Shown: positions 21,406 through 48,087 of the stretch, piece by piece | How the letters are laid out: every line of letters starts with the position of its first letter | How positions within the stretch are numbered: position 1 is the first letter of the stretch | DNA from: an uncultured delta proteobacterium | GTDB lineage: Bacteria; Desulfobacterota; Desulfobaccia; Desulfobaccales; 0-14-0-80-60-11 | Length of the DNA: 64,000 bases | Reading direction: 5' to 3' | Assembly (NCBI GenBank): GCA_963701845.1 | Contig: CAVPBF010000006.1 | Coordinates: 477,084 to 541,083 of the forward strand | Program-made: the position numbers and the translations under genes | The notes under the pieces: model-generated | The model's input: the letters and a program-made list of their open reading frames with translations, nothing else | Told to the model about the DNA's origin: nothing | The model's database searches: none

Positions 21406-21423
21406 GGGAGTTTCCTATTATTT

Positions 21424-22981: not shown

Positions 22982-23439
22982 CCTTGCACCGCCAGTTCTA
23001 GTTCTTCCGGGACCACCGCCCCTGGTTCCCGTATCGACACCAGGGGACTAGGGCCCAGAGCTTTAACTCTGTCAGTCATCTCTTTCACTGCGGCCACCCA
23101 TTTGGGGGCGTCCGAGGCGGCCACCTCATACATGACCAGGCGCTCCGCCCCCAGGCCGCACTCTTCCAGCAGATGCTGGGCGTATTCCACCCGTTCCCGG
23201 GCTCGGAGATTTCCCTCCAGGAAATGGCAACTCCCGGCCTCGCAGCCACTCACCATGATGCCATCGGCCCCGGCCTCAAAGCCCTTCAGGATGTGGATGA
23301 TGTCGATCCGGCCGGTGCACAGGTACTTGACGATGCGCACGTTGGCCGGGTACTGCATCCGGGCCGACCCCGCCATATCCGCGGCCGTGTAGGTGCAGTA
23401 GGTGCAAATCAAGGCCAGTATTTTGGGAGTAAATTCCAT
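22978..23439 (-). CDS. mvhD: MvhD-like [2Fe-2S] protein, Cys form
   Basis: ILALICTYCTYTAADMAGSARMQYPANVRIVKYLCTGRID...ADGIMVSGCEAGSCHF matches the MvhD/FlpD signature. Cys occupies the position that is TGA in the paralog at 38370-38900. Confidence 0.85.
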   Translation of the reverse strand: MEFTPKILALICTYCTYTAADMAGSARMQYPANVRIVKYLCTGRIDIIHILKGFEAGADGIMVSGCEAGSCHFLEGNLRARERVEYAQHLLEECGLGAERLVMYEVAASDAPKWVAAVKEMTDRVKALGPSPLVSIREPGAVVPEELELAVQG

Positions 23440-23448
23440 TTGTTATCC

Positions 23449-26400
23449 TCAACTCCTTGCGCCTAAGTCGACCGCGGGCCAGGGCAGCCCGATGGCCTCA
23501 ATTTTGGCAATGAATTGCTCGTCCAGGTTGTGCTTCACTGCAATGGCCTTCCGGGGGCAGGCGCTGGCGCAGTTGCCGCAGCCCTGGCAGGAGGCGGCGT
23601 CGATGACTACCACTCCTTCGCTTTCATCCATCCTGGGAACCCCGTAGGGGCAGGTGCGCACACAGGTGAGACAGGCGGCGCACTTGAGGGGGTCCACCTG
23701 GGCCACCGCTCCGGCCACGTACATCTCCTCCTGGGACAGAACCCCCAGGGCCCGGGCCGCGGCGCCCTGGGCCTGGGCGAGGCTTTCGTCCAGGAACTTG
23801 GGACCGTGGGCCAAGCCGCACAGGAAGATGCCGCTGGAGGCGAAGTCCAGGGGCCGCAGTTTCAGGTGGGCCTCCATGAAGAAGCCGTCGGCATCGAAAG
23901 GCAGCTTGAATACTTGGGCGATTTGCTGACTCACCGGATGAGGCCGGATGGCCGCGGACAGGACCAGGTAATCGGCCGGAAGGGCCAGGGTTGCCTGCAA
24001 CGACTGGTCGAAGACCGAGACCGTGAGGCCCTGGGCCGTCGCGGCCACTTCGGGTTGGCGGTCAGGCTCAAAGCGCACAAACTGCACCCCCAGGTCCCGG
24101 GCCTGCTTGTAGTAAATCTCCTTCAGGCCATAGGTGCGGATGTCCCGATAGAGGATGAAGACCTGGGCGTCCGGATTGAGCTCTTTGAGGGTAATGGCGT
24201 TTTTGACGGCCTCGCCGCAGCAGGTGCGGCTGCAATACTGGTGCTCCGGTGAACGTGAGCCGACGCATTGGATCATCACTACCCTGGGTGCGGTGTTTAC
24301 AACCTCCGGAGTGTCCGCCAGCAGGTTCTCCAATTCCATTTGAGTCAAGACTCGGGAATCCTGACCATAGAGGTATTCCGCCGGTTTATACTCCTCGCCC
24401 CCGGTGGCGACCACCACCGCGCCGTATTCCACTTCCCGGCGGCCGTCCGCCGATTCCACCGTACTCCGGAATTTGCCGATATGGCCGGAGACGTCCAGGA
24501 CCCGGGTGTTGGGCCACCAATCGATACGGGGATGGTTTTCCACCCGGCGCACCAGCTCCTGGAGATACGGCTGAATTGCATGGCCTTCCAGGGTGCGGCG
24601 CATTTCCCGGGCCAGGCTGCCGCCCAGCCGGTCCTGGGCTTCCGTCAGGTAGACCTGGTAGCCGCCGTCGGCAATGGTCAGGGCGGCCGTCAGGCCGGCC
24701 AGACCGCCCCCCACCACCAGCGCCTTCTGGGTTACCGGGAAGAGCAGGTCGCCCAAAGGCTCGAGGATGGCGGCCCGGGCTACCGACATGCGCACCAGTT
24801 CCCTGGCCTTCTCGGTGGCCAGTTCCGGGGTCCCCTGATGGACCCAGGAGTCCTGGTCCCGGATGTTGGCCATCTCAAACAGGTACTTGTTCAAGCCCGC
24901 CTTGCGCAGATTCTCCTGGAACAGGGGTTCATGGGTCCGGGGGCTACAGGAGGCCACCACGATCCGGTTCAGGTTTTCGGTTTCGATTACCCGGCGCATG
25001 TTGTCCAGAGAATCCGTGGCGCAGGTGAAGGTATAGTGATCGGTGTACACCACGCCAGGGAGCGTGCGGGCGTAATCGGCCACCGCCGCCACGTCCACCA
25101 CCCCGGCGATGTTGATGCCGCAGTGGCAGACAAAGACGCCGATCCGGGGCGCCGCCCCGCTGGTCTCCTTTTCCGGGGGGTAGGCTTCCTTGGTGAGCAG
25201 GGTGCCCCGGGCCTCGGCGAGCAGGGAGGCCGCCGCTCCGGCCGCGCCGGAGGCCTGGGTCACGGTCTCGGGGATATCTTTGGGAGACTGGAAGACGCCG
25301 CAGGTGAAGATCCCTTCCCGGGAAGTGGACACCATCTCCAGCGGCGGGCTCACGGCAAACCCCCAGCGATCCGTGGCGATATCGCAGTTGGCCGCCAGTT
25401 CCCGGGCAGCCGGATGGGGGTTCAGGCCCACCGACAGCACCACCAGGTCAAAGATTTCGGTTTGCAGCTGGCCGGACTCGTCGACGTAATTGAGCTCCAG
25501 ATTATGGCTGCTGGGGTCTTGGGCCACCCGGGAGATCATCGCCCGGATATAGCGCACCCCGTGGTCGGTCTTCGCCCGCTCGTAGTACCGGTCAAAGCCC
25601 TTTCCCTGGGCGCGGAAATCGATGAAAAAGATGGTGGGCTCAATATTATGGTCGTGCTCCCGGGCGATGATGGCCTGCTTGGTGGCGTACATGCAGCAGA
25701 CGTAGGAACAATATTCCCGGCCGCAGGAAGCGTCCCGGGAGCCCACGCACTGGATCCAGGCCACTTTCCGGGGCGGGGCGCCGTCGCTGGGGCGTTGAAC
25801 GTGCCCGCCGTACGGACCGGTAGCCGACAGCACTCGCTCGAACTGTAACGACGTCACGACATTGGGATAGCGGCCGAACCCGTATTCGGGCTTCTGGCCG
25901 GCGTCGAAAGGCCGGAAGCCCGGCGCCAGAATCATGGCCCCCACTTCAATTTGCCGGGTATGGGGCTGCTCCTGATGGTTAATGGCGCCGGCTTGGCAGG
26001 CTGACACACACTGCATGCATTCGGAACACCCGCCGCAATTGAGGCAGCGCGCCGCTTCGGCTAGGGCCTCCTGCCTCGGTAAAGCCCTGGTTGATTTCCT
26101 GAAAGCCCTTGACCCACTCGGCCGGCGGCAACTCCGGCATCACGGCCCGCGGCTTTTTGATGGCGTCGGCCGGCAGCGGAGTCCAATTGCCCTCTGCCTG
26201 GGGAATGGGGCGCAGGGGCAGTTCGCGCCCAGCTTTGAGGTCCTGGCCCTGGAGATAGCGGTCGATGGAGAGGGCGGCTTCCCGGCCCGCGGCCACCGCG
26301 GCGATGGCGATGTAAGGACCGGAGACCACGTCGCCCCCGGCAAAGACGCCCTCCCGGCTGGTGGCCAGGGTGTCCGGATCCGCCTCGATCAGGCCGCGGG

Positions 26401-27928
26401 GAGTGAGTTTGATGCCATCCGCGTCAGTGATGAATTTGAGGTTGGTCCGCTGGCCGATGGCCAGGATGACGATATCGGTGCTCCGAGTAGTGGTTTGATC
26501 TTCCAGATAGGTGGGAGCGAAGCGCCCTTGCGCATCAAAGACCCGTTCCACGGCCCTGAGTTCGAGGCCGCTGACCTTGCCCTCCCGAGCCAGGATCTGC
26601 TTGACGCCCCACCGGTGGCTGATCTCGATGCCTTCCTGCTCGGCCTCCGCCACTTCCCAGGAGGAAGCCGGCATCTCTTCCCGGGTTTCGAGCGAGATCA
26701 AGGTGACCTCGCCCCCCTGGCGCCGGGCCGTGCGGGCCACGTCCATGGCCACGTTGCCGCCGCCGACGACCGTCACTTTTTGGCCCTGGAAATCGAACTT
26801 TTGACCCGAGGCCGAGTCTTTGAGATATTCGACGCCCCAGAGGACTCCCTGGGCGTCCGCGCCGGGCACCGGCAGGCGGATGGAGTCTTGCGCCCCGACG
26901 CCCAGGAAGACCGCCCGGAAGCCTGCGGTGGTGAGCAGATCGTTGATGGTGCGGCCGGGGCCGCCGATGGGGGAGTTATAGTTGATCTGCACCCCCAGGC
27001 GCTGGATGTAGTCCACTTCCCGTTGCAGGACATCCTTGGGCAGGCGGTATTCCGGAATGCCGTAGCGCAGCCAGCCGCCGGCCGCCGCGGCGGCCTCGAA
27101 GATCACCGCCTGATAGCCTTGGAGGGCGAGATGATAGGCGCAACTTAAACCGGACGGCCCGGACCCGATAATGGCCACGGCCTCGGAGCGCTCAGGCACC
27201 TCGGGCACCGGCAGCGTCTGCCAGTCCACCGCATCGGCCACAAAGCGCTTCAGGCTGCAGATGGCCACGGGTTCGTCCACTTCCTGGCGCCGGCAGTCCG
27301 TCTCGCAGGGATGGGGGCAGATGCGGCCGATGGTGCCGGGGAGCGGCAGCCGGTCCAGGATGAGGGACAGGGCCTCGGGAAATTTCCCGGCCTTGATGAG
27401 CTGCACATAGCCCTGCACGCTCAAATTCGCCGGACAGCCACGCACACAGGGCCCCCGATCCAGTTTCTTGATGGCAAAGGTGGCCGGGATCGCCTGGGGG
27501 AAGTGCCGGTAGGCGGCATGGCGCACGCCCAGGCCTGCATCGAAAGACGAAGGCAGTTCCACCGGGCAGGCCTCGGCGCAGGCCCCGCAGGCGTTGCACT
27601 TGGCCCGGTCGATGTAACGGGGCTCCCGGCGGAGGGTGACGGTGAAACGGCCCGCCTCGCCTGCCACCGCGGCCACCTCGGACTGGGTGATGATCTCGAT
27701 GTCCGGGTGCCGGGCCACCTCGATGAGCTTGGGGGAGATCAAGCAGGTGGAGCAATCGTTGGTGGGGAAGGTCTTGTCCAACTGGGCCATGACCCCGCCG
27801 ATGGAGATGTCTTTCTCCACCAGATAGACCTTGAAACCCGCATTCGCCGCGTCCAGGGCGGCCTGCATGCCGGCGATGCCGCCCCCCACCACGGAAATGG
27901 CGCCGATTTTGGTGTGGTCAGTGGGCAT
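23449..27928 (-). pseudogene. hdrA: giant HdrA-GltD/NfnB-like-HdrA fusion (HdrL-like), Cys form, one frameshift as sequenced
   Basis: ORFs 25979-28138 and 23449-26016 are collinear with the intact paralog at 42146-46609. Start [22 protein letters not shown] at 27928 (TAATG junction with hdrB). Motif TNDCSTCLISPKL. The junction reads FTEA / EALAEAARCLNCGGCSEC, and deleting one G of GCAGGAGG (about 26070) restores the frame. The first ORF ends in TAA, so this is not a Sec codon. Confidence 0.85.
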
Positions 27929-28782
27929 TACAGCAATCCTTTTTCCTGCAGTAACGGCCGGGGGTCCACCAAATGGCGGGCGAGCCAGCCCTCTGCCTCC
28001 GGGTGCCCCAGGGCCAAGCCGATCAGCTCGGTAAAATAGAACACCGGCAGATAATAATTTTTGCCCAACTTCTTGGAGATACGCGCCTGGGATAGATCGA
28101 GGTTGGCCTGGCACATCTGGCAGGCGACCACGAAACACTCCGCCCCGGCTGCCAGGGCCCGGTCATAGAGACGGCCTACCAGCGTCTCGATGATATCCGG
28201 CCGGGACATAGACAAACCGGCACCGCAGCAGTCGGTCTTGTAGGACCAGTCGAGGGGCTCGGCCTGCAGGATCTGAAGCAAGCGCTCCAAATCTTTGGGG
28301 TTTTCCCAATCCGCTTTATCCGTGATCGCCGGCGGCCGGGAGGCCAGGCAGCCGTAATAACCCACGGCTTTCAGGCCGGTCAGGGGCCGTACCAGCTTCC
28401 GGCCCAGGCTGGACAGAAATGACTCCTGGGTCAGAAAGTCCAGCAGGTCCCAGATCTTGATGTTTCCCAGGGTCTCTTCCCGGCCCTGCTGCGCCTTTTC
28501 GGCGGCCTTGAGCCGGTTGAAGCACAGGGCGCACGGCACCACTACGTCCCGCCCTTGCTCTCGGGCCAGGGCCAGATTGCGGGCCGGAAGCTCGAGAGAG
28601 AGCTGATGATTGAGGCTGTGCGCGGCACTGGCGCCGCAGCAGTTCCAATCTTCCAGTTCCGCCAACTCCAGACCCAGCAAGGGAGTGACGGCGGCGATGG
28701 AAGCGGCGTAATCCGCCGCGGTGCCTTCCAGGGAACAGCCCGGATAATAGGATACTTTCATGAGTTTACTTAAGCCCCGCAC
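27928..28782 (-). CDS. hdrB: heterodisulfide reductase subunit B-like (two CCG domains)
   Basis: KVSYYPGCSLEGTA, NCCGASAAH, GYYGCLASRPP and TDCCGAG are CCG-domain signatures. The start may instead be the internal MKVSYY at 28761. Confidence 0.85.
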   Translation of the reverse strand: MRGLSKLMKVSYYPGCSLEGTAADYAASIAAVTPLLGLELAELEDWNCCGASAAHSLNHQLSLELPARNLALAREQGRDVVVPCALCFNRLKAAEKAQQGREETLGNIKIWDLLDFLTQESFLSSLGRKLVRPLTGLKAVGYYGCLASRPPAITDKADWENPKDLERLLQILQAEPLDWSYKTDCCGAGLSMSRPDIIETLVGRLYDRALAAGAECFVVACQMCQANLDLSQARISKKLGKNYYLPVFYFTELIGLALGHPEAEGWLARHLVDPRPLLQEKGLL

Positions 28783-29383
28783 GGTGAAAAATAGCTTTGA
28801 TCTCCCCCCGCCCTTTGAGGGCGGGCGGGCCGACCGGACGCAGACGGCCGCGTCTGAACAGGGCCCAGCCGAGCTTAGAATTTTCCCAGAGTTCCTTGAT
28901 TTGCGGCCGGCGCCAGAGTTTAAACAGGGTAAAGCGTCGCATCAACGCCACTTCAGACAAGCGCCCCCCGGCCCGGCGCAGGCTTTCCAGGAAGAAGCGA
29001 TGGAAGGCTGCGACCTCCGGCTGGGAGATGGCCTTCCCCTGCCGGATCGCCTCCTCCTTGAGCCAGTCCATGACCCCGGCGATGTCGATGCCATTGGGGC
29101 AGCGAGTGCTGCAGGTGACGCAGGCGGCGCAGACCCAGATGGTCCGGCAATTCAGGAGCGTTTCGGTCTGCCCCAGGAGGGCCAGCCGGATGACCCGGTC
29201 CGGGAGCAAATCCATGGCAAAGGTCAGGGGACAGCCGGCGGAACACTTTTTACATTGAAAACAGGAGGACACCGGCAGGGCGGCTTCCTTGGCCAGGCGC
29301 TCCGGTAAGGAAAACGAAGGAAGCACCGGTTGATTTAGGTTGATTTCCATTAAGATCGGCTCCTGTTGTTGAGAGATCTCCAT
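28766..29383 (-). CDS. hdrC: heterodisulfide reductase subunit C-like (2x[4Fe-4S])
   Basis: CFQCKKCSAGCP and CAACVTCSTRCP motifs with an HdrC-like helical body. The start is probably the second ATG (29350), which follows AGGAG. Confidence 0.8.
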   Translation of the reverse strand: MEISQQQEPILMEINLNQPVLPSFSLPERLAKEAALPVSSCFQCKKCSAGCPLTFAMDLLPDRVIRLALLGQTETLLNCRTIWVCAACVTCSTRCPNGIDIAGVMDWLKEEAIRQGKAISQPEVAAFHRFFLESLRRAGGRLSEVALMRRFTLFKLWRRPQIKELWENSKLGWALFRRGRLRPVGPPALKGRGEIKAIFHRAGLK

Positions 29384-29463
29384 CTATTGCCTGCTATTCC
29401 CGTCAGGGCTTAATCCCGGTGCCTTTACTGAGAGATACTCATTTCTGCTTGGAATGGAATTAA

Positions 29464-29478
29464 GCAAGGCATATGCCA
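29464..29478 (-). promoter_or_regulatory. sigma54 (-24/-12) promoter for the hdrC-led operon
   Basis: The minus strand reads TGGCATATGCCTTGC (TGGCAT-N5-TTGC), one mismatch to TGGCAC-N5-TTGC, about 100 nt upstream of hdrC. Confidence 0.6.
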
Positions 29479-29556
29479 AGTCCCACGTATTACCCCTAAG
29501 TGGTTATTTTTACAAACATATGGTCATTAATGCCCTAAAGCTCAGACTCTCTCAGT

Positions 29557-29573
29557 TGTCGGATAATCCCACA
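29557..29573. promoter_or_regulatory. candidate enhancer (UAS) dyad, site 1
   Basis: TGTCGGATAATCCCACA (TGT-N11-ACA around a GGATAATCC core), about 80 nt upstream of the minus-strand sigma54 promoter. Confidence 0.5.
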
Positions 29574-29622
29574 AAAACTGGGCAGAACCATTTAACTGAC
29601 TGATATTAAAACTTTTTTAAGT

Positions 29623-29639
29623 TGACGGATAATCAGACA
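29623..29639. promoter_or_regulatory. candidate enhancer (UAS) dyad, site 2
   Basis: TGACGGATAATCAGACA, flanked by TT..AA like site 1. Confidence 0.45.
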
Positions 29640-29827
29640 ATTCAACATAATACTATACCCCCGTCAGGTATATTGGTACTTTTAAATTAATTTTAAATAC
29701 TTATCTGAATTATTCAGGGCCAGACTGTCAAAAGGCCTTACCCTCAGGCCATCTCCGATCGTAGGAATATGCGACATATTAGTATTCTTAATAATTTCAA
29801 TATGATATCCAACTAATCAGCAATGTC

Positions 29828-29844
29828 TGTGGATTTATCCGACA
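29828..29844. promoter_or_regulatory. candidate enhancer (UAS) dyad, site 3
   Basis: TGTGGATTTATCCGACA, whose reverse complement is TGTCGGATAAATCCACA. About 90 nt upstream of the plus-strand sigma54 promoter. Confidence 0.5.
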
Positions 29845-29934
29845 AGCTGCCGAGGGCAGCAATATTAGTGCCGATCCTGATTTAATATAAAAATTAATAT
29901 AAAATTCCAGTGGTTACATTGCATGGCCAGTGAT

Positions 29935-29949
29935 TGGCACATTCATTGC
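29935..29949 (+). promoter_or_regulatory. sigma54 (-24/-12) promoter for the GcvH-like gene pair
   Basis: TGGCACATTCATTGC is an exact TGGCAC-N5-TTGC. AAGGAGGGG RBS at 29971-29979 and ATG at 29987. Confidence 0.7.
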
Positions 29950-29986
29950 TTTCTTTTAGGTCAAACCTCAAAGGAGGGGCGAGCTG

Positions 29987-30622
29987 ATGAACAACTTTAC
30001 GAAAATTACCAAAATGGTTGAGGTCTTCGGTTTTCAAGTCCCCGCCGACACTTATTATTTACACCGGGGCCATGCCTGGGCCAGGCTGGAAAGCGAGGAT
30101 CAGGTGCGGGTGGGCCTGGACGACTTTTCCCAAAAAATTCTGGGTCCGGCGGACGGGATCAAGTTACCCGAAGTCGGCAAGGTCTATTACCAGGATCACC
30201 TCTGCCTGGCCCTGATGAGGCAGGGGCGGAAGGCCTCCTTTGAGGCGCCCGTGGATGGCGCCATCGAGGCCGTCAACCCGAAAGTGCGCGATAACCCCAG
30301 CCTGGTTCACGACGACCCTTATGGGGAAGGCTGGATCTGTTTAATGAAACCGGTCAATCTCCAGCGCAATCTGGAACACCTGTCCTCCGGCGCAGCCAAT
30401 GTCGCCTATATCGATGCAGAGTCCCACCGGTTGATGCATCTCATGGACACCCGGGTCGGTTTCACCCTGCCGGACGGCGGCGCCATCGTCGATGACGTTT
30501 ACGGCCATTTTCAGGAGTTAGGCTGGCGGCCCCTGGTGCAGGAATTTTTCCTGCAAAACCTGACCAAAAAGGGTTTCCTGCCGGTGGCGAAATGGCAGAA
30601 GTCTAAGACAGCCGTGAGATAA
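29987..30622 (+). CDS. GcvH-like protein (subtype 2) with a conserved C-terminal extension; lipoyl-Lys position is Gly
   Basis: [28 protein letters not shown]-22 aa-APVDG and DDPYGEGW align without gaps to the E. coli GcvH core, with RQGRKA replacing ESVKAA. The extension reads AYIDAESHRLMHLM...[18 protein letters not shown]. Confidence 0.75.
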   Translation: MNNFTKITKMVEVFGFQVPADTYYLHRGHAWARLESEDQVRVGLDDFSQKILGPADGIKLPEVGKVYYQDHLCLALMRQGRKASFEAPVDGAIEAVNPKVRDNPSLVHDDPYGEGWICLMKPVNLQRNLEHLSSGAANVAYIDAESHRLMHLMDTRVGFTLPDGGAIVDDVYGHFQELGWRPLVQEFFLQNLTKKGFLPVAKWQKSKTAVR

Positions 30623-30693
30623 GCGGACCGGGGGGTGATCTCCCGGAGCCCTGTCTTGCGGTGGCAGAGCGTTAACCTAAGGGGTATGATTCA

Positions 30694-31572
30694 ATGGAAA
30701 AACCAGGTATCGAGGAGAAAAAGCCCTGCATCTGGATGGAAGCCGGGGTGATCGATTTCAAGATTTGCAATCATGATTTCGATTGTCTATCTTGCGATTT
30801 CGACCGGGTCATGAGTGAAACCGCGGCCCAGCATCCGGCCAGCCGCCCAGGCGGTGGACCGGTAGACCAGCCGGCTGCTCTGCCCCCCTGGGAGGGGAAA
30901 ATGCGGCAACGCTTCGAGGGGCAGCAGCAGTGCCGACTCATGCAGACCCGGCATTGCCACGAGTGTTCCTTCGATGAACTCCTGGAGGATCAATTTGAAT
31001 TCTTTCTGGCCCCGGAAAGACCCAGGGTGCAGGAGGTTTTCGGCATTGCGGTGCCGACCTCCAACTTTCTGCATCGGGGCCATACCTGGGTGGCCCTGGA
31101 GAACGCCGGCCGGGTCCGCATCGGCCTGGACGACTTTGCCGTGAAGGTCCTGGGGCCGCCGGATAAAATCAGCCTGCCTGACGTCGGGAAGGAGATTCAC
31201 TCCGATGAGGTGGCTCTGGTTCTATCCCGCCGCGGGAAAAAGGCCGCGGTCCTGGCGCCCCTCAACGGCGTCATCGAGGCAGTGAATCCCCAGATCCGGC
31301 AAAAGCCCGGTTTGACTCATGATGACCCCTACGGCGAAGGCTGGCTGTTCGTCGTCACCCCCAGCAATCTCAAAGCGGACCTGGAAAAAATGCTGTTTGG
31401 CCAGTGCAATGTCGCCTGGATCGACCACGAATCCCACCGACTGCTGGGCATGCTGGAAGCCGCCGCGGGCGTGACGCTGCCTTCCGGGGGAGTGATCATC
31501 GATGACGTCTTCGGCGCCTATCCGCAACTGGGCTGGAAGCGCCTGGTGCAGGAGTTTCTCCATAGCGCCTGA
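30694..31572 (+). CDS. Cys-rich N-terminal domain fused to a GcvH-like domain (subtype 1)
   Basis: N-part CIWMEAGVIDFKICNHDFDCLSC and CRLMQTRHCHEC. C-part LHRGHTWVALE...DDPYGEGW...GGVIIDDVFGAYPQLGW. It ends in EFLHSA, like the fusion protein at 17231 (EFLRSA). Confidence 0.75.
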   Translation: MEKPGIEEKKPCIWMEAGVIDFKICNHDFDCLSCDFDRVMSETAAQHPASRPGGGPVDQPAALPPWEGKMRQRFEGQQQCRLMQTRHCHECSFDELLEDQFEFFLAPERPRVQEVFGIAVPTSNFLHRGHTWVALENAGRVRIGLDDFAVKVLGPPDKISLPDVGKEIHSDEVALVLSRRGKKAAVLAPLNGVIEAVNPQIRQKPGLTHDDPYGEGWLFVVTPSNLKADLEKMLFGQCNVAWIDHESHRLLGMLEAAAGVTLPSGGVIIDDVFGAYPQLGWKRLVQEFLHSA

Positions 31573-31710: not shown

Positions 31711-33057
31711 TTAATGGGTGAGTCCGTATTTCTTGATTTTCTCGTAGAGCGTGGAACGGTTGATGCGCAGAACCCGGGCGACGTTGGAGAGGTTGCCGCC
31801 TTTGGTGGCCAGGAGCTGGGCGATATGTTGGCGCTCCAGTTCCTCCAGGGATAACTCTCCGAATTCCAGCGCCTCATTGGTCGCCCCAAAGGGCAGGTCG
31901 CTGCATTTGATCTGCCGGCCTTTCCCCACGACGACCGCCCGTTCTATGGCGTTTTCCAGCTCCCGGACGTTTCCCGGCCAGGAATACCGCTGCATCGCTT
32001 CCATGGCCTTCGGATGGATGGAGTCGATCTTCTTTTTGGTCTCGGTGGCGTAGCGTCGCATGAAATGTTGTGCCAGCAAGGGAATATCTTCCAGCCGCTC
32101 CCGCAAGGGCGGCACCTGGAGATGAATGACGTTCAGGCGATAGAACAGATCCTGTCGAAAGGTTTTGCGCCGAATGGCTTCCTGGAGGTCTTGGTTAGTG
32201 GCGGCGATGACCCGAAAATCGCTGCGTAACTGGACAGTTCCCCCCACCCGGGTGAATTCCCGGGTCTCCAGGACCCGGAGCAGGTCGATCTGCATCTTCA
32301 TGGAGATGTCGCCCACCTCATCCAGGAAGAGAGTCCCGGCGTGCGCCATTTCCAGGCGACCTTTCTTGGTATATTTGGCGTCGGTGAAGGCGCCTTTTTC
32401 GTGTCCAAAGAGCTCGCTTTCCAGGAGCTGTTCCGTAAAGGCCCCACAGTTGATGGCAATGAAGGGGGCATAACACCGGGGACTCTGCGCATGGATGGCC
32501 CGGGCCACCAGTTCTTTGCCGGTACCGGTTTCCCCGGTGATCAAGATAGTGGCATCGCTCTGCGCCACATCGACAATGGTTTCGAACAGCTGCACCATAA
32601 CCGGTGACTGGCCCACCAGGTTTTCAAAGCGGGTGATAGTCGCCAGCCGCTCTTTTAAAACCAGATTCTCCATCGCCAGGTTTTGCATCTGGACCAGTTT
32701 TTCAACGGTAAAACTGAGTTCCTCCAATTCGAAGGGCTTGAGCAAATAGTCATAAGCGCCCAGCTTAATAGCTTCCACGGCGTCATGGATATCGCCGTGC
32801 GCCGTCATCATGAGGACGTTGGTCTCGATCTCGCTTTCCTTGAGTTTCTTAAGCAGGGTCAGGCCGTCCATCTCCGGCATTTTGACGTCGATGAGCAGGA
32901 TATCATAGCGATTTTCCCGGATCTTGGCCAATGCCGCGACCCCGTCTTCGGCGGTTTCCACCTCGTAGCCGCCCCTTTTCAGCCAGGCGCTCAGAGATTC
33001 GCGGATGCTCAGTTCGTCATCCACCACCAGGATGCTGATCTTGTTATGGGGCGACAC
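31711..33057 (-). CDS. sigma54-dependent response regulator (NtrC family): REC, AAA+, Fis-type HTH
   Basis: GTG start at 33057 after GGGAGAAGAAA. ILVVDDELSIRE receiver domain. GETGTGKELVARAIH Walker A. GAFTDA replaces the canonical GAFTGA. C-terminal HTH NVARVLRINRSTLYEKIKKYGL. Confidence 0.85.
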   Translation of the reverse strand: MSPHNKISILVVDDELSIRESLSAWLKRGGYEVETAEDGVAALAKIRENRYDILLIDVKMPEMDGLTLLKKLKESEIETNVLMMTAHGDIHDAVEAIKLGAYDYLLKPFELEELSFTVEKLVQMQNLAMENLVLKERLATITRFENLVGQSPVMVQLFETIVDVAQSDATILITGETGTGKELVARAIHAQSPRCYAPFIAINCGAFTEQLLESELFGHEKGAFTDAKYTKKGRLEMAHAGTLFLDEVGDISMKMQIDLLRVLETREFTRVGGTVQLRSDFRVIAATNQDLQEAIRRKTFRQDLFYRLNVIHLQVPPLRERLEDIPLLAQHFMRRYATETKKKIDSIHPKAMEAMQRYSWPGNVRELENAIERAVVVGKGRQIKCSDLPFGATNEALEFGELSLEELERQHIAQLLATKGGNLSNVARVLRINRSTLYEKIKKYGLTH

Positions 33058-35317
33058 TTTCTTCTCCCGGTTTAAAGGCGGGCAGACGGACTGTAAAGGA
33101 GGTCCCGTGCCCCACGACACTGTCCACTTTGATGGAGCCCTTGTGGTCCCGGACAATACCATAAACCACGGAGAGCCCCAAGCCTGCACCGGAGCAAGTC
33201 TTTTTCGTGGTAAAGAAGGGTTCGAAGATCTGGGAAAGATTTTCCTTAGGAATACCTTTCCCGGTGTCGGAGACCTTCACCACCACTTGATGGCGTCGGG
33301 AATTCTTCGTCTCCAGGGTGAGAGCGCCCCCCTGCGGCATAGCGTCCTGGGCGTTTAGGAAGAGATTCAAAAAGGTCTGTTTCATCTGTCCCTTATCCGC
33401 CAAGACCGGGAGCAGGTCCGGAGCCAGTTGGCGGTTCACGGTGATGCCTTGCAGCCGCATTTGGTACCCGGTAAGAGACAAGGTCTCCTCTACTACCGCG
33501 TTGAGGTCCACCGGTTCGAAATCCGGGCTGGTCTTACGGGAAAAAGCCAGAAGGTTGGCAACCGTTCGGCTGACCCGGGAGGTCTCACTATGGATCATCG
33601 TGAGATAACGGCGGATATTAGCCAAATCCTCCTCGCCCGGGGCCCCCTCCTTCAGCATGCTTTCCATCAATCTGACGAAGTTGAGTATACCGGTCAGCGG
33701 GTTATTGATTTCATGCACCACGCTGGCGGACAGCTTCCCCAAAGAGGCCATCTTGTCGTCATGGAGCAGCCGCGTGCGGGAGTTGATCTCCTGGGTGATA
33801 TCCCGGGACAGATCAACAACTTGATGAATCCGTCCTGCTTCATCATACAGCGGGTGACAGACCACGTGATAATAACGCTCGCGGCCTTCCCGGTCGAAGT
33901 GCACATGCGTGGCTGAGGCTGCCTTGCCCGTAGCCACCGCCTCTTTTAAAGGACAGGGATGATCAGGAGTGGTGCATGGTTCCTGCAAGTGGTGCGACAC
34001 CTCATAACAGTGTCTGCCCACCACTTCCTGCCATTTTAGACCCACCATCTTCAGCAAGGCCCGGTTGACTTCGATAATTTTATAGTCCAGGTCGATCACC
34101 ATCATGTGATCCTCAATGCCGTTGACAATGGTCTCAAGAAAGTCCTTCCCCTTTTTTGCCCTTTCCTCGGAACTTTTCAGCGCCTCTTCCAACTGCATGC
34201 GGGGGCTGATATCTTTGATAACCTCGATAACTCTTTTTTTGGTACCTTCCGGCGGGCACAGGGGCGACATGGTAATTTCATCATACCGGATGGTGCCGTC
34301 GGGATTGGGGAAGCCTTGCAAACCCTGGACGGTCTCACATTTTTCTAAAACGGTCGGCAAGGGACAGGGCAGGCCTTTCCGGTCGCAGGGCTCATCAAAC
34401 TGATGAAACACTTCATAACAAGGTTTGCCGATGACCTCATCCGCCTGTTTGTGGAAGCGGTTCAGAAAAGGAAGATTGGCCTCTTCCACCAGATAATTGG
34501 GTTTCAGTACCAGCACCGGATCCGGAAGGTGGTCGAAAATTCCCTGAAAGCGGTTGCGTTGGCCGGCCAACCTGATTTCACTCTCTACCTTGCTGCGCAG
34601 CCGGTCTTCCTCCCGGTGCAATAAATCCCAGAAGAGACGCGCCTTGATGTGGTCGATGATCTGAGTGTGCGGGCCCTTCCGCTGGATGATTTTATCCCGC
34701 ACCTCCGGGTCCCCGGTGAGTTCCAGGATAAGATCCGGATTCGACTCCCGGATGGGAGCTAAATCGGTAAAGGTCGGTATACCCAATTCTTTGGCCAGAA
34801 TGACACCCTGGGCCTGGGGGTTGGGATCGGCCACCCAGATGATTTCGATTCTCCGCCGGTAACGCGGTTCTCCGGAAATAAGTTTGAGAACCTCGTGACC
34901 GCCTTTACCTCCCCCCACGATGCCGATTCTCAACGGGGTAGCTTCTTGAACAGAGCTAAGATCCATGGAGATGAGGTCCCAGAAGTCCTCCCAGGAAAGG
35001 GGACGATCGACATTGAGGACCATCAATCTCGCGGGGCGCTGTTCGTCTAATTGTTTAGAGACTTCCGGGTGGCCGGTGGCGTTGACGATGATGTCTAATT
35101 CGGGGAGTTGGAATAAGTCAGTGAAATCGATGGTGACAAAAAGGTTATGCCGGTAAGCATAGACGATGCCGCGAGCATACGGGTTCAGATCCGCTACTCC
35201 CACGACGCGCAAGGGCTGGTCATCCCGGCGGAGAGGCACCAGGGCCTCCAGGATGGCCATACCTTGACGGCCCGCACCCACCAGGGCCAGATTATAGAAC
35301 GGCTTGCCGGGACTCAT
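33044..35317 (-). CDS. cytoplasmic sensor histidine kinase: two Rossmann-like GxGxxG modules, two Cys/His-rich PAS domains, HisKA, HATPase
   Basis: LALVGAGRQGMAIL and IGIVGGGKGGHEVL. PAS segments with CYEVFHQFDEPCDRKGLPCPL and CYEVSHHLQEPCTTPDHPCPL. H-box SVVHEINNPL. ATPase motifs DTGKGI and GAGLGL. No TM segment seen. Confidence 0.8.
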   Translation of the reverse strand: MSPGKPFYNLALVGAGRQGMAILEALVPLRRDDQPLRVVGVADLNPYARGIVYAYRHNLFVTIDFTDLFQLPELDIIVNATGHPEVSKQLDEQRPARLMVLNVDRPLSWEDFWDLISMDLSSVQEATPLRIGIVGGGKGGHEVLKLISGEPRYRRRIEIIWVADPNPQAQGVILAKELGIPTFTDLAPIRESNPDLILELTGDPEVRDKIIQRKGPHTQIIDHIKARLFWDLLHREEDRLRSKVESEIRLAGQRNRFQGIFDHLPDPVLVLKPNYLVEEANLPFLNRFHKQADEVIGKPCYEVFHQFDEPCDRKGLPCPLPTVLEKCETVQGLQGFPNPDGTIRYDEITMSPLCPPEGTKKRVIEVIKDISPRMQLEEALKSSEERAKKGKDFLETIVNGIEDHMMVIDLDYKIIEVNRALLKMVGLKWQEVVGRHCYEVSHHLQEPCTTPDHPCPLKEAVATGKAASATHVHFDREGRERYYHVVCHPLYDEAGRIHQVVDLSRDITQEINSRTRLLHDDKMASLGKLSASVVHEINNPLTGILNFVRLMESMLKEGAPGEEDLANIRRYLTMIHSETSRVSRTVANLLAFSRKTSPDFEPVDLNAVVEETLSLTGYQMRLQGITVNRQLAPDLLPVLADKGQMKQTFLNLFLNAQDAMPQGGALTLETKNSRRHQVVVKVSDTGKGIPKENLSQIFEPFFTTKKTCSGAGLGLSVVYGIVRDHKGSIKVDSVVGHGTSFTVRLPAFKPGEESVAP

Positions 35318-35401: not shown

Positions 35402-37444
35402 TCATCCTTCCACCAATTTCTCCACTCGAGCCTTGCCGACCTTGAACTCCGGAATCTTGGCCAGGGGGTCCACGGCTGCGGAGTTAGTCAGCACATTCGG
35501 GGGATTCTCGCCGAAATGGATGGGGAGAAAGAGGTTGCCAGGCAGTACTGACTGAGTGATTTTGGCCGGGGCCTCAATGCGGCCCCGCAAGGAGGAAATC
35601 ACCAGGATCTCGCCATTTTTTACTGCCAGCCGGCCGGCGTCTTCCGGGTTGATTTCCACGTAGCCGGTGGGCTGCTCCCGGTCCAGGGCCGGTGACACCC
35701 GGGTCATGGTGCCGGTGTGGTAATGGGCGAACATCCTGCCGGTGGTCAAGAAATAGGGGTATTCGGCGTCCGGCATCTCCGCCGGGTCCTGGTACTGGAC
35801 CGCATGCAGCTTGCCTAAGCCCCGGGTAAATCTGTCTCGGTGCAAAAATTTCGTGCCTGGATGGTCGGCGGTGGGGCAGGGCCATTGCAACCCGTCGATC
35901 CCCAACCGGGCATAAGTCATGCCAGCATAACTGGGCGTCAAGGCTGCCATCTCCCGGAAGATCTCCTCCGGGCCGGCGTAGGACATGGGATAGCCCATGG
36001 CGGTGGCCAGCCGGCAAATGATCTCCCAATCGGGCAGGCTGTGGCCCACCGGCTCGACGGCCTTATTGAGACGCAGGCAGCGCCGTTCGGTGTTGGTGAA
36101 GGTGCCGTCTTTCTCCGCCGAGGCCGCCGCGGCCAGGACCACATCGGCCCCTTGGGCCGTTTCCGACAGGAACAGGTCCTGGACGATCAAGAGATCGAGC
36201 TTTTTCATGGCATGGCGAAGGTGATTCATGTCGGGATCACTCAATTTCGGATTTTCGCCCACCACATAGAGGGCCTTGAGTTGGCCCGCGTCAATGGCCT
36301 TCACCATATCCGGGATGGTCAGCCCGGGTTTGTCGGGCAGCGGCCGGCCCCAGGCCTGGGAAAATTTGGCGTTGAGGTCGGGATTGGCCACCGGCTGATA
36401 GCCGGAAAAGACGTTGGGCAGTCCGCCCATATCACAGGCGCCCTGGACGTTGTTCTGACCGCGCAGGGGGTTGACCCCGGCGCTGGCGATGCCCACGTTG
36501 CCGGTGAGCATGGCCAGGTTGCAGACCGCCTTGACGTTGTCCACCCCCGTGGTGTGCTGAGTGATGCCCATGGCATACAACAGCGCGGCCGGCCGGTGCG
36601 TGGCGTACAGCTCGCTCATCTTTTCCAGGTCCCGGGGGTTGACGCCGGTGATCTGCTGAACCCGCTCCGGCGTATAAGCCGCCAGGGATTCCCGCAGCTC
36701 CTCGAACCCTTCGGTGCGGCCAGCGATATAGTCCTTCGCCTCCCAGCCGTTGGTTAGAATCAGGTGCATCATGCCGTTGAGCAGGGCCACGTCGCTGCCC
36801 AGCCTCTGGTTGACGGCCACGTCGGCAAAGAGGCCCAACTGAATCCGGCGGGGATCGGCCACGACCAATTTGGCCCCTCTTTCTTTGGCGCGCAAAATCC
36901 GCCGGGCGATGAGGGGATGGCAAGCCGAGGTATTGGAACCGATGATGAAGATGCAGCCGGCCTCTTCGATCTCGGCGATGGAGTTGGTCATGGCCCCACT
37001 CCCAAAGGCGGCGGTAAGACCTACCACCGTCGAGGAGTGTCAGAGACGGGCGCAGTGGTCGACATTGTTGGTGCCGACCACGGCGCGGGCGAATTTTTGC
37101 AGGAGATAATTTTCTTCATTGGTCACCTTGGCCGAAGCCAGCACCCCGACGCTGTCCGGGCCGTGCTTGGCGATCACGGCCTTGAGCTTTTCGGCGGTAA
37201 ACTTGAAGGTCCGCTCCCAGGTGACCTGGTGGAGGCGGCCGCTGATCCTCAAGCGGGGCGACTGCAGGCGCATGCCGCTGTTGACGTACTCATGCAGGTT
37301 CCAACCCTTGATACACAATTTTCCCTGATTCACGGGGTGGGTCTTGAGAGGCAGGGTGCCCAGGAGCCGGCCGTCCAGCACCTTGAAGAGCACCCCACAG
37401 CCCGTGCCGCAATAAGAACATACCGATGGAACAAGTTTATACAT
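35402..37444 (-). CDS. fdhA: formate dehydrogenase catalytic subunit, selenocysteine-containing, cytoplasmic
   Basis: ORFs 37040-37444 and 35402-37027 are in one frame, joined by the TGA at 37040-37042 in the context NNVDHCARL-U-HSSTVVGL. N-terminal CSYCGTGCG cluster, no Tat signal. SECIS-like hairpin directly downstream. Confidence 0.9.
36997..37039 (-). promoter_or_regulatory. bacterial SECIS element of fdhA
   Basis: The mRNA reads CACUCC UCGA CGGUGGUA GGUCU UACCGCCG CCUUUG GGAGUG. It forms an 8 bp upper stem with a GGUC-containing apical loop, like the E. coli fdhF SECIS, plus a 6 bp lower stem. Confidence 0.7.
37040..37042 (-). other. in-frame TGA read as selenocysteine (FdhA)
   Basis: CARL-TGA-HSS is the conserved active-site Sec/Cys position of formate dehydrogenases. 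Confidence 0.85.
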
Positions 37445-37471
37445 GACTTCTCTCCAGGCTGCGACGCCCCA

Positions 37472-38290
37472 TCAGACCGCTTCCCGATGGGCTTCGGCGG
37501 GCGCGGGAGCACTCTCGCCCAGCAGGCTGAAGGGCGGTTGCTCCCGGCTGAGGCCGGTTTCGTAACCAAACAGGTCTTGGACGATTTCGTTGCTCTTGCG
37601 GTACAACAGCCGCAAGGGGATGTCCACCGGACAGGCATCTTCGCACAAGCCGCAGTCAATGCAGCGGCCCGCCATATGCACGGCCCGGATGAGATGGAAC
37701 AATGGCACCTCCGGCGGCACCCCGCCGGTTTCCACCAGATCCCCGTGTTCCAGGGAGCATTCCTTGCAGAAGCACACCGGACAGATGTCCCGGCAGCCAT
37801 AACATTTCAGGCATTTTTGGAATTCATACATCCACTTATCAAACCGCGTCCCTTCCGCAAATTCTTCCAAGCGGGCTACTGACATATTGTTGTCGATCCC
37901 CAGCTCCAGCTTCACTTTCCCATAGGTCCGGGGCGCAAGAGTGGAGCAATCCGCGTGTTTCTTGAGCGGCGAAGGACAGCAATTGACCCCCAGGACCTCG
38001 ATCTGGCCGGGAGTGATTTGTTGATGCACCGCCAGGACATTCAGGGCCCGTTGGTTGCAGTCGCGGCCCAAAATGCCGAGTTTGAGGCCCGGCTGCTCCG
38101 CCAGGATCTCGACTGCCAGCTTTTCCAGGGGATAGCGGGCCTCACTGACCATTAACTCAGCCAATTCTCCGAGGTTGTCGCGATCAAAGGCGTACGGCAA
38201 GGGATGCCCCTCAACCAGTTTATAGCCCAGGAAGAGGTCTACCTTGCCGGTATCCAGCCACTGGCGCACCGTTTCTGTTATATCAGCCAT
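37472..38290 (-). CDS. 4Fe-4S dicluster electron-transfer protein (AsrA/sulfhydrogenase-beta-like), putative FDH partner
   Basis: 272 aa with CLKCYGCRDICPVCFCKEC and CIDCGLCEDACP motifs. Located between mvhD(Sec) and fdhA. Confidence 0.5.
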   Translation of the reverse strand: MADITETVRQWLDTGKVDLFLGYKLVEGHPLPYAFDRDNLGELAELMVSEARYPLEKLAVEILAEQPGLKLGILGRDCNQRALNVLAVHQQITPGQIEVLGVNCCPSPLKKHADCSTLAPRTYGKVKLELGIDNNMSVARLEEFAEGTRFDKWMYEFQKCLKCYGCRDICPVCFCKECSLEHGDLVETGGVPPEVPLFHLIRAVHMAGRCIDCGLCEDACPVDIPLRLLYRKSNEIVQDLFGYETGLSREQPPFSLLGESAPAPAEAHREAV

Positions 38291-38308
38291 ATCAGTTATC
38301 CCATGCAG

Positions 38309-38373
38309 GGTGCGCGCCGCGCACCATTTTCAATCTTTGATTTGAACAAGTTGGTGCGCAGTGCGCACCCTAC
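38309..38373. repeat. two REP-like palindromes inside the operon
   Basis: GGTGCGCGCCGCGCACC (38309-38325) and GGTGCGCAGTGCGCACCCTAC (38353-38373). The second overlaps the mvhD stop codon at 38370-38372. Confidence 0.8.
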
Positions 38374-38900
38374 ATCTGCCCGGCAGGCCGGCCGCAGCCA
38401 CAGCCGCCTCCCTGCCCGGCCAGGGGCGGCGGGGCTAAATCCAGGCTCTCCAAAGGCCGCTCATAGTTCCGGGCCAGGGGGTTGGGCCCCAGGTCCCGAA
38501 TCTGTTGGGTGAATTCAGTCACCACCTGGACAAACTTGTTGGCTTCGGCGGAGGAAATCCATTCCAGGCGTAATCTGCCCCCCAGGCCGACAAAGGGCAA
38601 TAATTCCTGCAAGAAGGACATCCGCTTTTTAGTCATGTGATTACCGTACAGGTAATGGCAGTCTCCCAGGTGTCAGCCGGCCACCAGGATACCGTCGGCC
38701 CCGCTCTGCAAGGCCCTCAGGATGTGATGCGGCGAGACCGTGGCGGAGCACATGACCCGGAGCAGCCGGATATTGGCCGGATACTGCAGGCGGCTGACCC
38801 CGGCCAGATCGGCGGCCCCGTAAGCGCACCAGTTGCAGACGAAGGCCAGCAGTCTGGGCTCAAAAGTTTCCACGTCCATGGCTTCTCCTTGGCGAGTCAT
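38370..38900 (-). CDS. mvhD: MvhD-like protein, selenocysteine form (VhuD-like)
   Basis: ORFs 38673-38900 and 38370-38636 share one frame: ...ADGILVAG-U(TGA 38673-38675)-HLGDCHYLYGNH.... The Cys paralog has SGCEAGSCHF at this position. Confidence 0.8.
38673..38675 (-). other. in-frame TGA read as selenocysteine (MvhD)
   Basis: Aligns with the Cys of the GC-x-G-x-CH motif in the paralog at 22978-23439. Hairpin AUUACC-UGUAC-GGUAAU lies 16 nt downstream (38640-38656). Confidence 0.7.
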
Positions 38901-41900: not shown

Positions 41901-41944
41901 AACACCGCACCCAATTTCTGTCCCGGGAAAAGGGCTTCACTCAT
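38900..41944 (-). CDS. hdrA: double-module HdrA (QmoA-like FAD module plus full-length HdrA), selenocysteine-containing
   Basis: ATG at 41944 after [20 protein letters not shown](TGA 41750-41752)[12 protein letters not shown]. The downstream ORF 38900-41734 is in the same frame. HdrA signatures [24 protein letters not shown] and [20 protein letters not shown], plus C-terminal ferredoxin motifs. Confidence 0.85.
41750..41752 (-). other. in-frame TGA read as selenocysteine (HdrA)
   Basis: Occupies the second Cys position of TNDC-x-x-C (TNDCSTC in the Cys paralog at 23449-27928). Confidence 0.75.
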
Positions 41945-42145
41945 GGAACCTTCCTCCAATCGGTCTCTCCAGCAATCCCCAGGCCAGATCTACAAAATCA
42001 GCTCCCTGGCGGCTTAGGGGAACAGGGAAAATGTCCCAACCCAGCAATATCCGGGATGGGCATCAGGCGTTCTCTGCTGTCGCCATGCTTAATTATAAAA
42101 TAAGTTTCGAAATATCGCAACTAATTCAGGGGCTCGCCTGCCCGT

Positions 42146-47654: not shown

Positions 47655-47669
47655 GCAAAGGATGTGCCA
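47655..47669 (-). promoter_or_regulatory. sigma54 (-24/-12) promoter for the gcvH-like/hdrL/hdrA/mvhD/fdhA/kinase/regulator operon
   Basis: The minus strand reads TGGCACATCCTTTGC, an exact TGGCAC-N5-TTGC. Confidence 0.7.
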
Positions 47670-48025: not shown

Positions 48026-48087
48026 TAAAGATGGTGTCACGTCTTGAAGCTCACGTGAATACAGGAATATTTGATAGGAGGTTTTCC

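Follow-up and report, generated by a model that had tools for sequence, protein, structure and literature searches.

A 64,000-nucleotide (nt) stretch of the genome of an uncultured delta proteobacterium of the Desulfobaccales (contig CAVPBF010000006.1, positions 477,084 to 541,083 of the forward strand; hereafter the window) encodes four modules related to the glycine cleavage H-protein GcvH which, on the evidence of profile alignments and a structural model, are predicted to retain the H-protein fold and to have lost the lipoyl-lysine site. We refer to the family of these GcvH-like modules, A, B, C and D, as GcvHL. Judged by profile searches it is a distinct and widespread family, much larger than the four paralogues of the window; what is new here is this lysine-less, extended and systematically misannotated family with the GCV_H fold, the fold itself being already known. 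Our preferred reading, which in our judgement stands at about even chances, is that GcvHL is a cofactor-less H-protein fold serving as an accessory or docking module of Hdr- and Hmc-type redox complexes under sigma-54 control.

Four GcvH-like modules in one genomic window

A six-frame scan of the window with a hidden Markov model (HMM) built from the four copies recovered exactly four GcvH-like modules (E-values of 1e-100 to 1e-106) and no canonical GcvH. They are encoded as follows (lengths in amino acids, aa):

29987-30622, plus strand: GcvHL-A, a stand-alone protein of 211 aa; module with C-terminal extension at 30011-30553; hairpin RQGRK
30694-31572, plus strand: GcvHL-B, 292 aa; Cys-rich N-terminus at 30694-31020, GcvHL module at 31021-31569; hairpin RRGKK
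46690-47592, minus strand: GcvHL-C, 300 aa from the ATG at 47592; module at 47014-47559, helical tail of about 100 aa at 46690-47013; hairpin RQGHK
17231-20233, minus strand: protein D, a 1000-aa fusion of an HdrA-like N-terminus, 2x[4Fe-4S], MvhD (FlpD), an orphan Molydop_binding domain and a GcvHL module (17231-17788); hairpin RQGGT, with no Lys

A sequence-only reading of this DNA had singled out the same four copies, the last of them as the C-terminus of a longer protein, and all of the open reading frames (ORFs) hold, that of D covering 17231-20233. Among the motifs it listed as shared, LHRGH[AT]W, [VIL]GLDDF, LP-x-[VI]G and AP[VL][DN]G are present throughout, while DDPYGEGW is altered in C, which has HEDPYGEGW in place of HDDPYGEGW. 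The two subtypes it described are real: A and C are 71% identical and B and D 66%, the four paralogues ranging from 52 to 71% overall.

Fold and loss of the lipoyl-lysine site

All four modules match the Pfam family GCV_H (PF01597) with 58.6-73.3 bits against a gathering threshold of 22.2 (E 7e-16 to 2e-20, the latter value for GcvHL-A). They fall below the cut-offs of the NCBIfam GcvH models, at 54.7-74.1 bits against 115.85 for TIGR00527 and 117 for NF002270 (74 bits against 117 for GcvHL-A), and with 23-38 bits against cut-offs of 144-150 they are not members of TIGR03077 (not_gcvH) or NF045810 (GcvH_rel_desulf). An AlphaFold2 model of GcvHL-B, built with a 111-sequence alignment as input, has predicted local distance difference test (pLDDT) values above 90 for residues 110-290. 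When compared by Foldseek with 20 solved H-proteins, among them 1onl, 3a8i and 3klr, the model gave target-normalised template modelling (TM) scores of 0.91-0.94 and root-mean-square deviations of 1.2-1.6 A over about 125 columns, at 25-34% identity.

The claim that the lipoyl-Lys falls on a Gly in all four copies is upheld by pairwise, multiple, profile and model-based alignments. Gly occupies this position in phmmer alignments to the Thermus and E. coli H-proteins (1onl, 3a8i), in a MAFFT alignment with E. coli GcvH and in the alignment of a 32-sequence family profile to 1onl, and no conserved Lys was found at the hairpin tip in the profile alignment. The spacing of 22 aa between LPEVG and APV equals that of E. 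coli GcvH, as had been stated. In the GcvHL-B model the two hairpin strands (173-179 and 182-187) are joined by the two-residue turn R180-G181, with K182 and K183 in the returning strand. The Glu that lies at -3 from the lipoyl-Lys of GcvH is lost in the window copies, and the Lys at +2, kept in A, B and C, is Thr in D, both points of the earlier description of this residue being correct.

The same Gly had been called invariant, which holds for the close Desulfobaccales clade (n=215), where the hairpin reads R(96%)-Q-G(95%)-x-K(93%)-A with the Lys changed to Arg in 5%, and does not extend to the wider family. Among 146 representatives of the latter the tip column is Gly in only 50%, with Glu, Asp and Ser at 10% each and Lys at 7%. 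None of the six hairpin columns exceeds 20% Lys (15% at +2), 90 of the 146 (62%) have no Lys in any of them, and the hairpin is generally basic, with Arg in 58% at -2 and Arg or Lys common at +1 and +2. There is likewise no conserved Cys column in the module among these representatives. With neither Lys nor Cys conserved, a covalent Lys- or Cys-linked cofactor cannot be the common function of the GcvHL family, and the module cannot act as a persulfide carrier either.

These columns also bear on the idea that the attachment site has merely shifted, GcvHL being an LbpA-like acyl or lipoyl carrier modified on the Lys two residues past the tip. In lipoyl domains and H-protein the target Lys reportedly has to sit exactly at the turn, and a Glu three residues before it is said to aid recognition; this Glu is absent from the window copies, and the model places K182/K183 in a strand, off the turn. 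The R-Q-G-x-K-A hairpin of the close clade is strongly conserved, and GcvHL is associated with Hdr genes as LbpA is (PMC6067878), both of which speak for a carrier. The position is nevertheless Thr in D, Gln in the related fusion P0145 and Lys in P0146, Arg replaces Lys in part of the close clade itself, Lys is rare there in the wider family and most of its members have no hairpin Lys at all, and the strictly conserved Lys and two Cys of LbpA are both missing. We consider a carrier of this kind very improbable.

The C-terminal extension

An extension of about 55 aa that is missing from GcvH had been proposed for all four copies, and it is borne out. Solved H-proteins all end at position 137 of the 183 positions of the profile, and the window copies run on for some 46-55 conserved residues, which in the GcvHL-B model are confidently predicted to be helical, with a long helix (residues 237-258) that leads, through a loop with an invariant Gly-Gly pair, into two short helices. 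The extension has no match in Pfam, searched with the whole proteins and with the isolated extension at E<=10, or in the PDB, searched with Foldseek and by profile.

Among the 146 representatives, 24 columns are at least 85% identical, and these cover H-protein structural residues as well as the extension. Near-invariant and specific to the family are an Asp (99%) where GcvH has Thr in G-x-D-D-F and the Gly before the conserved His (87%); in the extension, a Trp (88%), the Gly-Gly pair (94-96%), a second Trp (96%) and a Phe (92%) stand out. The first His of H-x-G-H stays below 85% in the wider family.

Such residues might belong to a binding site: the cleft for the aminomethyl-lipoamide arm would have been remodelled at H-x-G-H-x-W, G-x-D-D-F and the Gly-Gly loop, with the extension as a lid, and would bind a ligand or metal non-covalently, so that the module would act as a chaperone, carrier or small enzyme for Hdr- and Hmc-type systems. 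The near-invariant Asp, Gly, Trp, Gly-Gly, Trp and Phe do differ from GcvH, and by alignment we take them to match arm-cleft positions of the pea H-protein (Ser12/Glu14/Asp67). Given that conservation of the first His is below 85%, that the extension resembles nothing in Pfam or the PDB and that the neighbouring genes point to no candidate ligand, this explanation seems to us improbable.

Family breadth and domain architectures

Of 1.84 billion cluster representatives (clusters at 50% identity) screened with the four-copy profile, 133 matched at E<1e-30. Among the 150 top-scoring representatives listed, the majority run from profile position 1 to 180, and core and extension thus form a single conserved module of about 180 aa. 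This breadth leaves hardly any room for decayed duplicates, that is, gcvH remnants whose Lys was lost by drift. Such decay would suit proteins that carry the label 'glycine cleavage system protein H' despite missing the key residue; it does not suit four intact paralogues at 52-71% identity in one window, more than 130 deep clusters that keep 24 columns at >=85% identity with the extension included, conserved dedicated promoters or recurrent domain fusions. Pseudogene decay is rejected as effectively refuted by the pattern of conservation.

In public records GcvHL proteins are labelled 'glycine cleavage system protein H' or 'lipoate-binding protein'. No account of a GcvH family lacking the lysine in an Hdr or Hmc setting came up in a full-text literature search, which had most subscription journals outside its reach.

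Domain architectures were compared among the matching proteins and in 70 related loci from species-representative genomes, found with the four-copy alignment and biased to Desulfobaccales, with several copies per genome. The simplest are stand-alone proteins like A, whose ATG is preceded by an AGGAGG ribosome-binding site. Proteins like B carry one or two N-terminal Cys4 motifs (C-x12-C-x5-C-x2-C). In GcvHL-B itself the arrangement is C12-x12-C25-x5-C31-x2-C34 followed by a shortened second motif, C80-x7-C88-x2-C91; the first can be written C-[ILV]-W-M-E-A-G-V-I-D-[FY]-K-I-C-x5-C-x2-C-x-F-D. These Cys are conserved at 91-100% among 33 B-type homologues. The isolated region matches no Pfam family in a scan at E<=10 and is poorly modelled by AlphaFold, with low pLDDT; the tandem motif is probably a Zn or Fe-S site.

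The helical tail of GcvHL-C is missing from A, B and D, and it gives weak matches to NHLP/Frankia_peptide-like leader domains, far below cut-off (NF038399, E 0.007; PF14407, E 0.0055). A longer ORF initiated by TTG extends C to 47643, a start that is unlikely because a sigma-54 promoter sits at 47655-47669.

Fusions to HdrA-like, MvhD and Molydop_binding domains are found in D, P0145 and P0146. The orphan Molydop_binding domain of D (residues 704-810; 17789-18120, minus strand), which in molybdopterin enzymes forms the C-terminal barrel, is flanked by MvhD and GcvHL and is not accompanied by a catalytic Molybdopterin domain, and the Molydop_binding-GcvHL arrangement is kept in P0145 and P0146. 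Other fusions to redox modules comprise a 363-aa protein with N-terminal GcvHL and a C-terminal HdrC-like Fer4_8 domain (L005:5827-6918; also L010 and L016), which takes the hdrC slot between hdrA and hdrB; the HdrD-like P0166, in which three GcvHL modules are combined with an FAD oxidase, Fer4_8 and two CCG domains; and 2x[4Fe-4S] fusions (P0175, P0181). Many members have a single N-terminal transmembrane helix, often matching Pfam DVU_0533; DVU0533 is Hmc operon protein 4, i.e. HmcD (PMC4265775).

A Response_reg receiver is fused directly to GcvHL in P0238 and in two adjacent genes each of L072 (10922-12708) and L074 (272-2482), where these fusions sit in the same clusters as membrane-anchored GcvHL. 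Proteins with two GcvHL modules in tandem were also seen (P0367-P0383, of about 418 aa, two of them named Gemmatimonadota/Gemmatimonadetes; L077, 7001-8257), encoded directly after Fer4_11 and NrfD genes and ahead of a multihaem cytochrome.

Comparison with known systems

GcvHL shares with GcvH (PF01597, TIGR00527) a fold of about 125 residues, the motifs HxW, G-x-x-D-x-A-Q, LPxxG, APxxG-x-[IV]-x-x-[IV]-N and DPYxxGW, and an identical hairpin spacing. It differs from GcvH in lacking the lipoyl-Lys and the Glu at -3, in its roughly 55 extra C-terminal residues, and in that its genes are predicted to be sigma-54-regulated and lie inside Hdr/Hmc-type clusters with no gcvT or gcvP nearby. We rejected a functional identity with GcvH on four counts: the Lys, the curated score, the length (a single domain of about 125-130 aa in GcvH) and the gene partners.

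An H-protein fold working with HdrB/C-type subunits has its nearest functional precedent in LbpA of the sulfur-oxidising sHdr system (hdrC1B1A-hyp-C2B2), a GcvH-like protein genetically tied to Hdr-like genes, which has a strictly conserved lipoylated Lys, two conserved Cys flanking the carrier region and dedicated lipoate ligases (Cao et al. 2018, PMC6067878). In contrast, GcvHL has no conserved Lys or Cys, carries the additional extension and is found in anaerobes with bifurcating-type HdrA/MvhD/MetFV/Fdh genes. With the Lys and both Cys missing, identity with LbpA was rejected by the criteria of PMC6067878.

Recruitment of an H-protein paralogue beyond glycine cleavage is also known for GcvH-L of Staphylococcus/Streptococcus (PDB 5a35), which is still lipoylated and matches GcvHL weakly (Foldseek E 2e-6 at 18% identity; profile E 3e-5). 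The curated families NF045810 ('GcvH-related protein') and TIGR03077 ('not_gcvH') similarly recognise that some GcvH homologues are not glycine-cleavage H proteins. The closest working analogy is offered by RnfC_N (PF13375) and NqrA_N (PF05896), barrel-sandwich hybrid folds with no attached cofactor that contribute to the structure of redox complexes; their sub-fold is different, H-protein motifs are lacking, and similarity to them stays below threshold (NQRA_N, 21.2 bits against 25 in P0185; RnfC_N, 25.5 against 25.6 in P0166). By analogy, the nearest models for how GcvHL works would be these RnfC and NqrA domains or an LbpA that is 'dead'.

Gene neighbourhoods in the window and in related loci

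Two strings of Hdr-type genes, assigned by Pfam, accompany the modules in the window:

20170-29383, minus strand: Hdr/MetFV gene string with HdrC, HdrB, GltD/HdrA-like, HdrA, MvhD, MetV, MetF and HdrA-like genes, ending in D
35402-46590, minus strand: Hdr/Fdh gene string downstream of C, with a small ORF, GltD-HdrA (1362 aa), HdrA (944 aa), a Fer4 protein and the selenocysteine formate dehydrogenase FdhA

Protein D closes the first string (hdrCB...mvhD-metVF) and has no promoter of its own; GcvHL-C opens the second. The Hdr genes are of the HdrABC/MvhD/MetFV/Fdh type. A Pfam scan of the 44 larger ORFs of the window found no GcvT, GcvP or Lpd family, the examination covering the window and the fetched flanks, and the scan of window ORFs of at least 150 aa showed no lipoate ligase family.

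The ORF first taken for a 'Mo-oxidoreductase' (35402-37460, minus strand) is the C-terminal part of the alpha subunit of a formate dehydrogenase with selenocysteine: the classic motif HCARL-U-HSST contains an in-frame TGA (37028-37030), and the gene starts near MYKLVPSVCSYCGTGCG. Together with the upstream HdrA, GltD-HdrA and Fer4 genes, FdhA suggests a bifurcating complex of the Fdh-Hdr type. The region from 17.2 to 47.7 kb as a whole looks like a sigma-54-controlled 'Hdr island', composed of hdrCB-...-mvhD-metVF-...-D, of A-B, and of C-...-gltD/hdrA-hdrA-fer4-fdhA with its selenocysteine codon (Sec), followed on the same strand by a kinase and a regulator.

In the related loci A-type and B-type genes are in tandem, C-type genes always adjoin GltD-HdrA and HdrA genes, and D-type fusions always follow mvhD-metV-metF-hdrA; a D-type fusion is kept after MvhD-MetV-MetF-HdrA411 in L051-L057 and is also seen in P0145/P0146. 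Many Desulfobaccales share the order hdrA-mvhD-fer4-hdrA-hdrC-hdrB-GcvHL-GcvHL. Where full 8-kb flanks were available (37 loci), a sigma-54 response regulator with a histidine kinase was found in 25, Hdr-type genes in 23, both in 16 and neither in five. The two-component system, and not Hdr, is therefore the most conserved neighbour of GcvHL, and the regulator-kinase pairing also occurs in Desulfobacteraceae, Terriglobia, Bacteroidota and Deltaproteobacteria. In Desulfobacca acetoxidans DSM 11109 a B-type gene adjoins Peptidase_M54, regulator and kinase genes.

A second recurrent cluster, in five loci of Bacteroidota, Gemmatimonadota and Deltaproteobacteria, contains the membrane-anchored form: one or more GcvHL genes, Fer4_11, NrfD and, directly after these two, an HmcD-like-GcvHL protein. 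A HAMP kinase and a sigma-54 regulator follow in four of the five, with Peptidase_M54 in addition in three; in the Gemmatimonadetes locus (L077) two PAS sigma-54 activators lie upstream instead. The Peptidase_M54 (archaemetzincin) gene is found after the sigma-54 regulator beside GcvHL in distant taxa (L072, L074, L075 and L078), D. acetoxidans included, and is absent from the window.

Predicted sigma-54 regulation

The following candidate regulatory features lie around A, B and C:

29935-29949, plus strand: sigma-54 (-24/-12) promoter TGGCACATTCATTGC, exact match, 38 nt before the start codon of A
47655-47669, minus strand: sigma-54 (-24/-12) promoter TGGCACATCCTTTGC, exact match, 63 nt before the ATG (47592) of C
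29464-29478, minus strand: candidate sigma-54 promoter TGGCATATGCCTTGC, one mismatch, about 80 nt before hdrC and divergent from A
29557-29573 and 29623-29639, plus strand: the dyad TGTCNGATNATCNGACA in duplicate, within the AT-rich stretch that separates hdrC and A; a candidate site for an enhancer-binding protein
47750-47766, plus strand: third copy of the dyad TGTCNGATNATCNGACA, about 90 nt upstream of the C promoter
31711-35317, minus strand: two-component system of a sigma-54-dependent response regulator (31711-33189) and a PAS histidine kinase (33044-35317), by Pfam; convergent with A-B

Exact TGGCAC-N5-TTGC sites number two in the 64 kb, where 0.2 would be expected, and 100 shuffles never yielded as many. 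The third site, TGGCATATGCCTTGC, is weaker evidence than these two; a similar one precedes an HdrC-like gene in L003. Sigma-54 elements are also found upstream of A-type and C-type genes in related loci, and 36 of 44 TGGCA[CT]-N5-TTGC sites in 974 kb of these loci stand immediately ahead of a GcvHL gene in the same orientation. Near-consensus sites precede the Fer4_11-NrfD-GcvHL operon of L077 and the membrane-anchored GcvHL of L078. The strict motif was not found in L072, L074 or L076 (the last of which carries a protein named Bacteroidota), and conservation of the promoter is thus documented only for Deltaproteobacteria-type loci, L077 (Gemmatimonadetes) and L078. With sites this well placed and a Sigma54_activat regulator adjacent, A and C are predicted to be sigma-54-dependent genes.

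Three copies of the dyad TGTCNGATNATCNGACA are present in the window, where 0.09 would be expected; each is upstream of A or C, and the dyad is a plausible common site for an enhancer-binding protein. The divergent intergenic region at 29384-29986 (600 bp) is visibly A+T-rich in a window of 61% G+C overall, and it holds, besides the sigma-54 promoter(s) and two of the dyads, a further half-site at 29835-29844 (minus strand). From its listed GTG start the response regulator would share 146 nt (33044-33189) with the end of the kinase gene, and the receiver begins only at residue 53; the true start is for these reasons probably downstream, near MSPHNKISILVVDD. A possible parallel is the Geobacter cbcBA operon, which has a sigma-54 promoter, the regulator BccR and the hypothetical proteins GSU0597/GSU3489 (10.1101/2021.04.15.440034).

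The persistence of this two-component system raises the main rival to a docking role in redox complexes, namely that GcvHL is a signalling accessory: a partner of the adjacent kinase and sigma-54 activator that would be both their target and a feedback modulator or co-sensor, with the B-type Cys4 motifs sensing redox or metal and the proximity to Hdr and Hmc genes reflecting a shared regulon and not shared complexes. Targets that feed back on their regulator have precedents in PspA for PspF and ZraP for ZraSR. The regulator and kinase are the most conserved neighbours across Desulfobaccales, Desulfobacteraceae, Terriglobia, Bacteroidota and Deltaproteobacteria, fusions of Response_reg to GCV_H recur, the D. 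acetoxidans group consists of just GcvHL-B, Peptidase_M54, response regulator and histidine kinase, and the Cys4 motifs are strictly conserved in B-type proteins. Yet the adjacency is already explained if GcvHL genes are mere targets, given the sigma-54 promoters before them, and the several independent events that joined GcvHL covalently to HdrA/MvhD, HdrC, HdrD-like and ferredoxin modules are hard to accommodate, as is the position of D at the end of an hdr/metFV string without its own promoter. On this balance we find a signalling accessory rather unlikely; the two roles are not exclusive, as a target can feed back on its regulator.

A proposed role in Hdr- and Hmc-type complexes

GcvHL has a complete barrel-sandwich fold with no swinging lipoyl arm; basic residues surround a Gly or Asp/Asn turn at the hairpin tip (R-x-G-[KR]-[KR]), and the helical extension of about 55 aa with its invariant Gly-Gly loop has been added to the fold. 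In the docking role that we prefer, the module would be non-catalytic and would attach to the cytoplasmic Fe-S/flavin subunits of Hdr-type and HmcBCD-type complexes. It could do so through the face by which true H-proteins and LbpA dock on their partner enzymes, perhaps together with the basic hairpin. Its supply would be set by the dedicated histidine kinase and sigma-54 response regulator, and the module added to the complexes upon a redox or energy signal. A redox role is supported by the covalent fusions to HdrA/MvhD, HdrC, HdrD-like, ferredoxin and HmcD-like partners; binding to Hdr or Hmc subunits, the docking role and control by the adjacent regulator we infer.

The sequence-only reading had proposed a GcvH fold recruited for a non-lipoyl role in Hdr-type complexes. 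The fold, the lost Lys and the extension stand, on profile, predicted-structure and family-wide evidence, and the link to Hdr is one of fusions and gene order. The Hdr context was drawn too narrowly, the family being tied also to HmcBCD-like membrane modules, receiver domains and the sigma-54 two-component system.

Several observations weigh against a docking role. A 'docking module' is the default reading for any cofactor-less domain, and the association of A, B and C with Hdr subunits is drawn from gene order and from the fusions of their relatives. Five of the 37 full-flank loci have neither Hdr genes nor the regulator, and the D. acetoxidans copy has no Hdr gene within 10 kb. The receiver fusions fit a signalling role at least as well as that of a redox subunit; the near-invariant Asp of G-x-D-D-F, the Gly-His of H-x-G-H-x-W and the Gly-Gly loop could mark a ligand site instead; and the strong conservation of the +2 Lys in the close Desulfobaccales clade makes a clade-specific modification possible.

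A bolder version of the docking proposal is offered tentatively, and we regard it as doubtful: GcvHL would be a phylum-spanning conditional subunit in which a basic hairpin 'finger' and a helical cap replace the lipoyl arm, and which, commanded by the kinase and sigma-54, plugs into the CCG, Fe-S or flavin subunits of Hdr/Hmc complexes to gate or re-route electrons, for example by switching bifurcating Hdr/MetFV/Fdh modules on or off. If this were true, GcvHL would be a protein mimic of a lipoyl- or thiol-substrate carrier, which would also hint that bacterial HdrB-type subunits originally worked with a protein-bound dithiol of the LbpA type.

The substrate and control of bacterial Hdr-like complexes outside methanogens are an open question in anaerobic energy metabolism, to which GcvHL gives a new handle. 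The kinase, the sigma-54 regulator, the shared dyad and the -24/-12 promoters make up a small predicted regulon tying signal sensing to electron-bifurcating enzymes. D. acetoxidans DSM 11109 is a type strain available in culture, and as it carries a GcvHL copy the role is directly testable in a named organism. Multiple mislabelled copies per genome can, in addition, inflate inferences of glycine cleavage, the reductive glycine pathway and lipoate dependence in metagenome-based reconstructions.

Other features of the window

An Hmc/Dsr-like membrane module lies 1.5-5 kb from C at 49036-53073 (minus strand), comprising Fer4_8 (51535-53073), Fer4_11 (50203-50691) and NrfD genes. The last is split over the overlapping ORFs 49458-50009 and 49036-49716, which suggests a frameshift or a sequencing error. 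A Usp gene (47998-48549, plus strand) stands between C and this module. At the other end of the window, a type II secretion/type IV pilus set (83-7530, minus strand) encodes PilM/N, GspK, GspH, GspF and GspE-like proteins and is unrelated to GcvHL.

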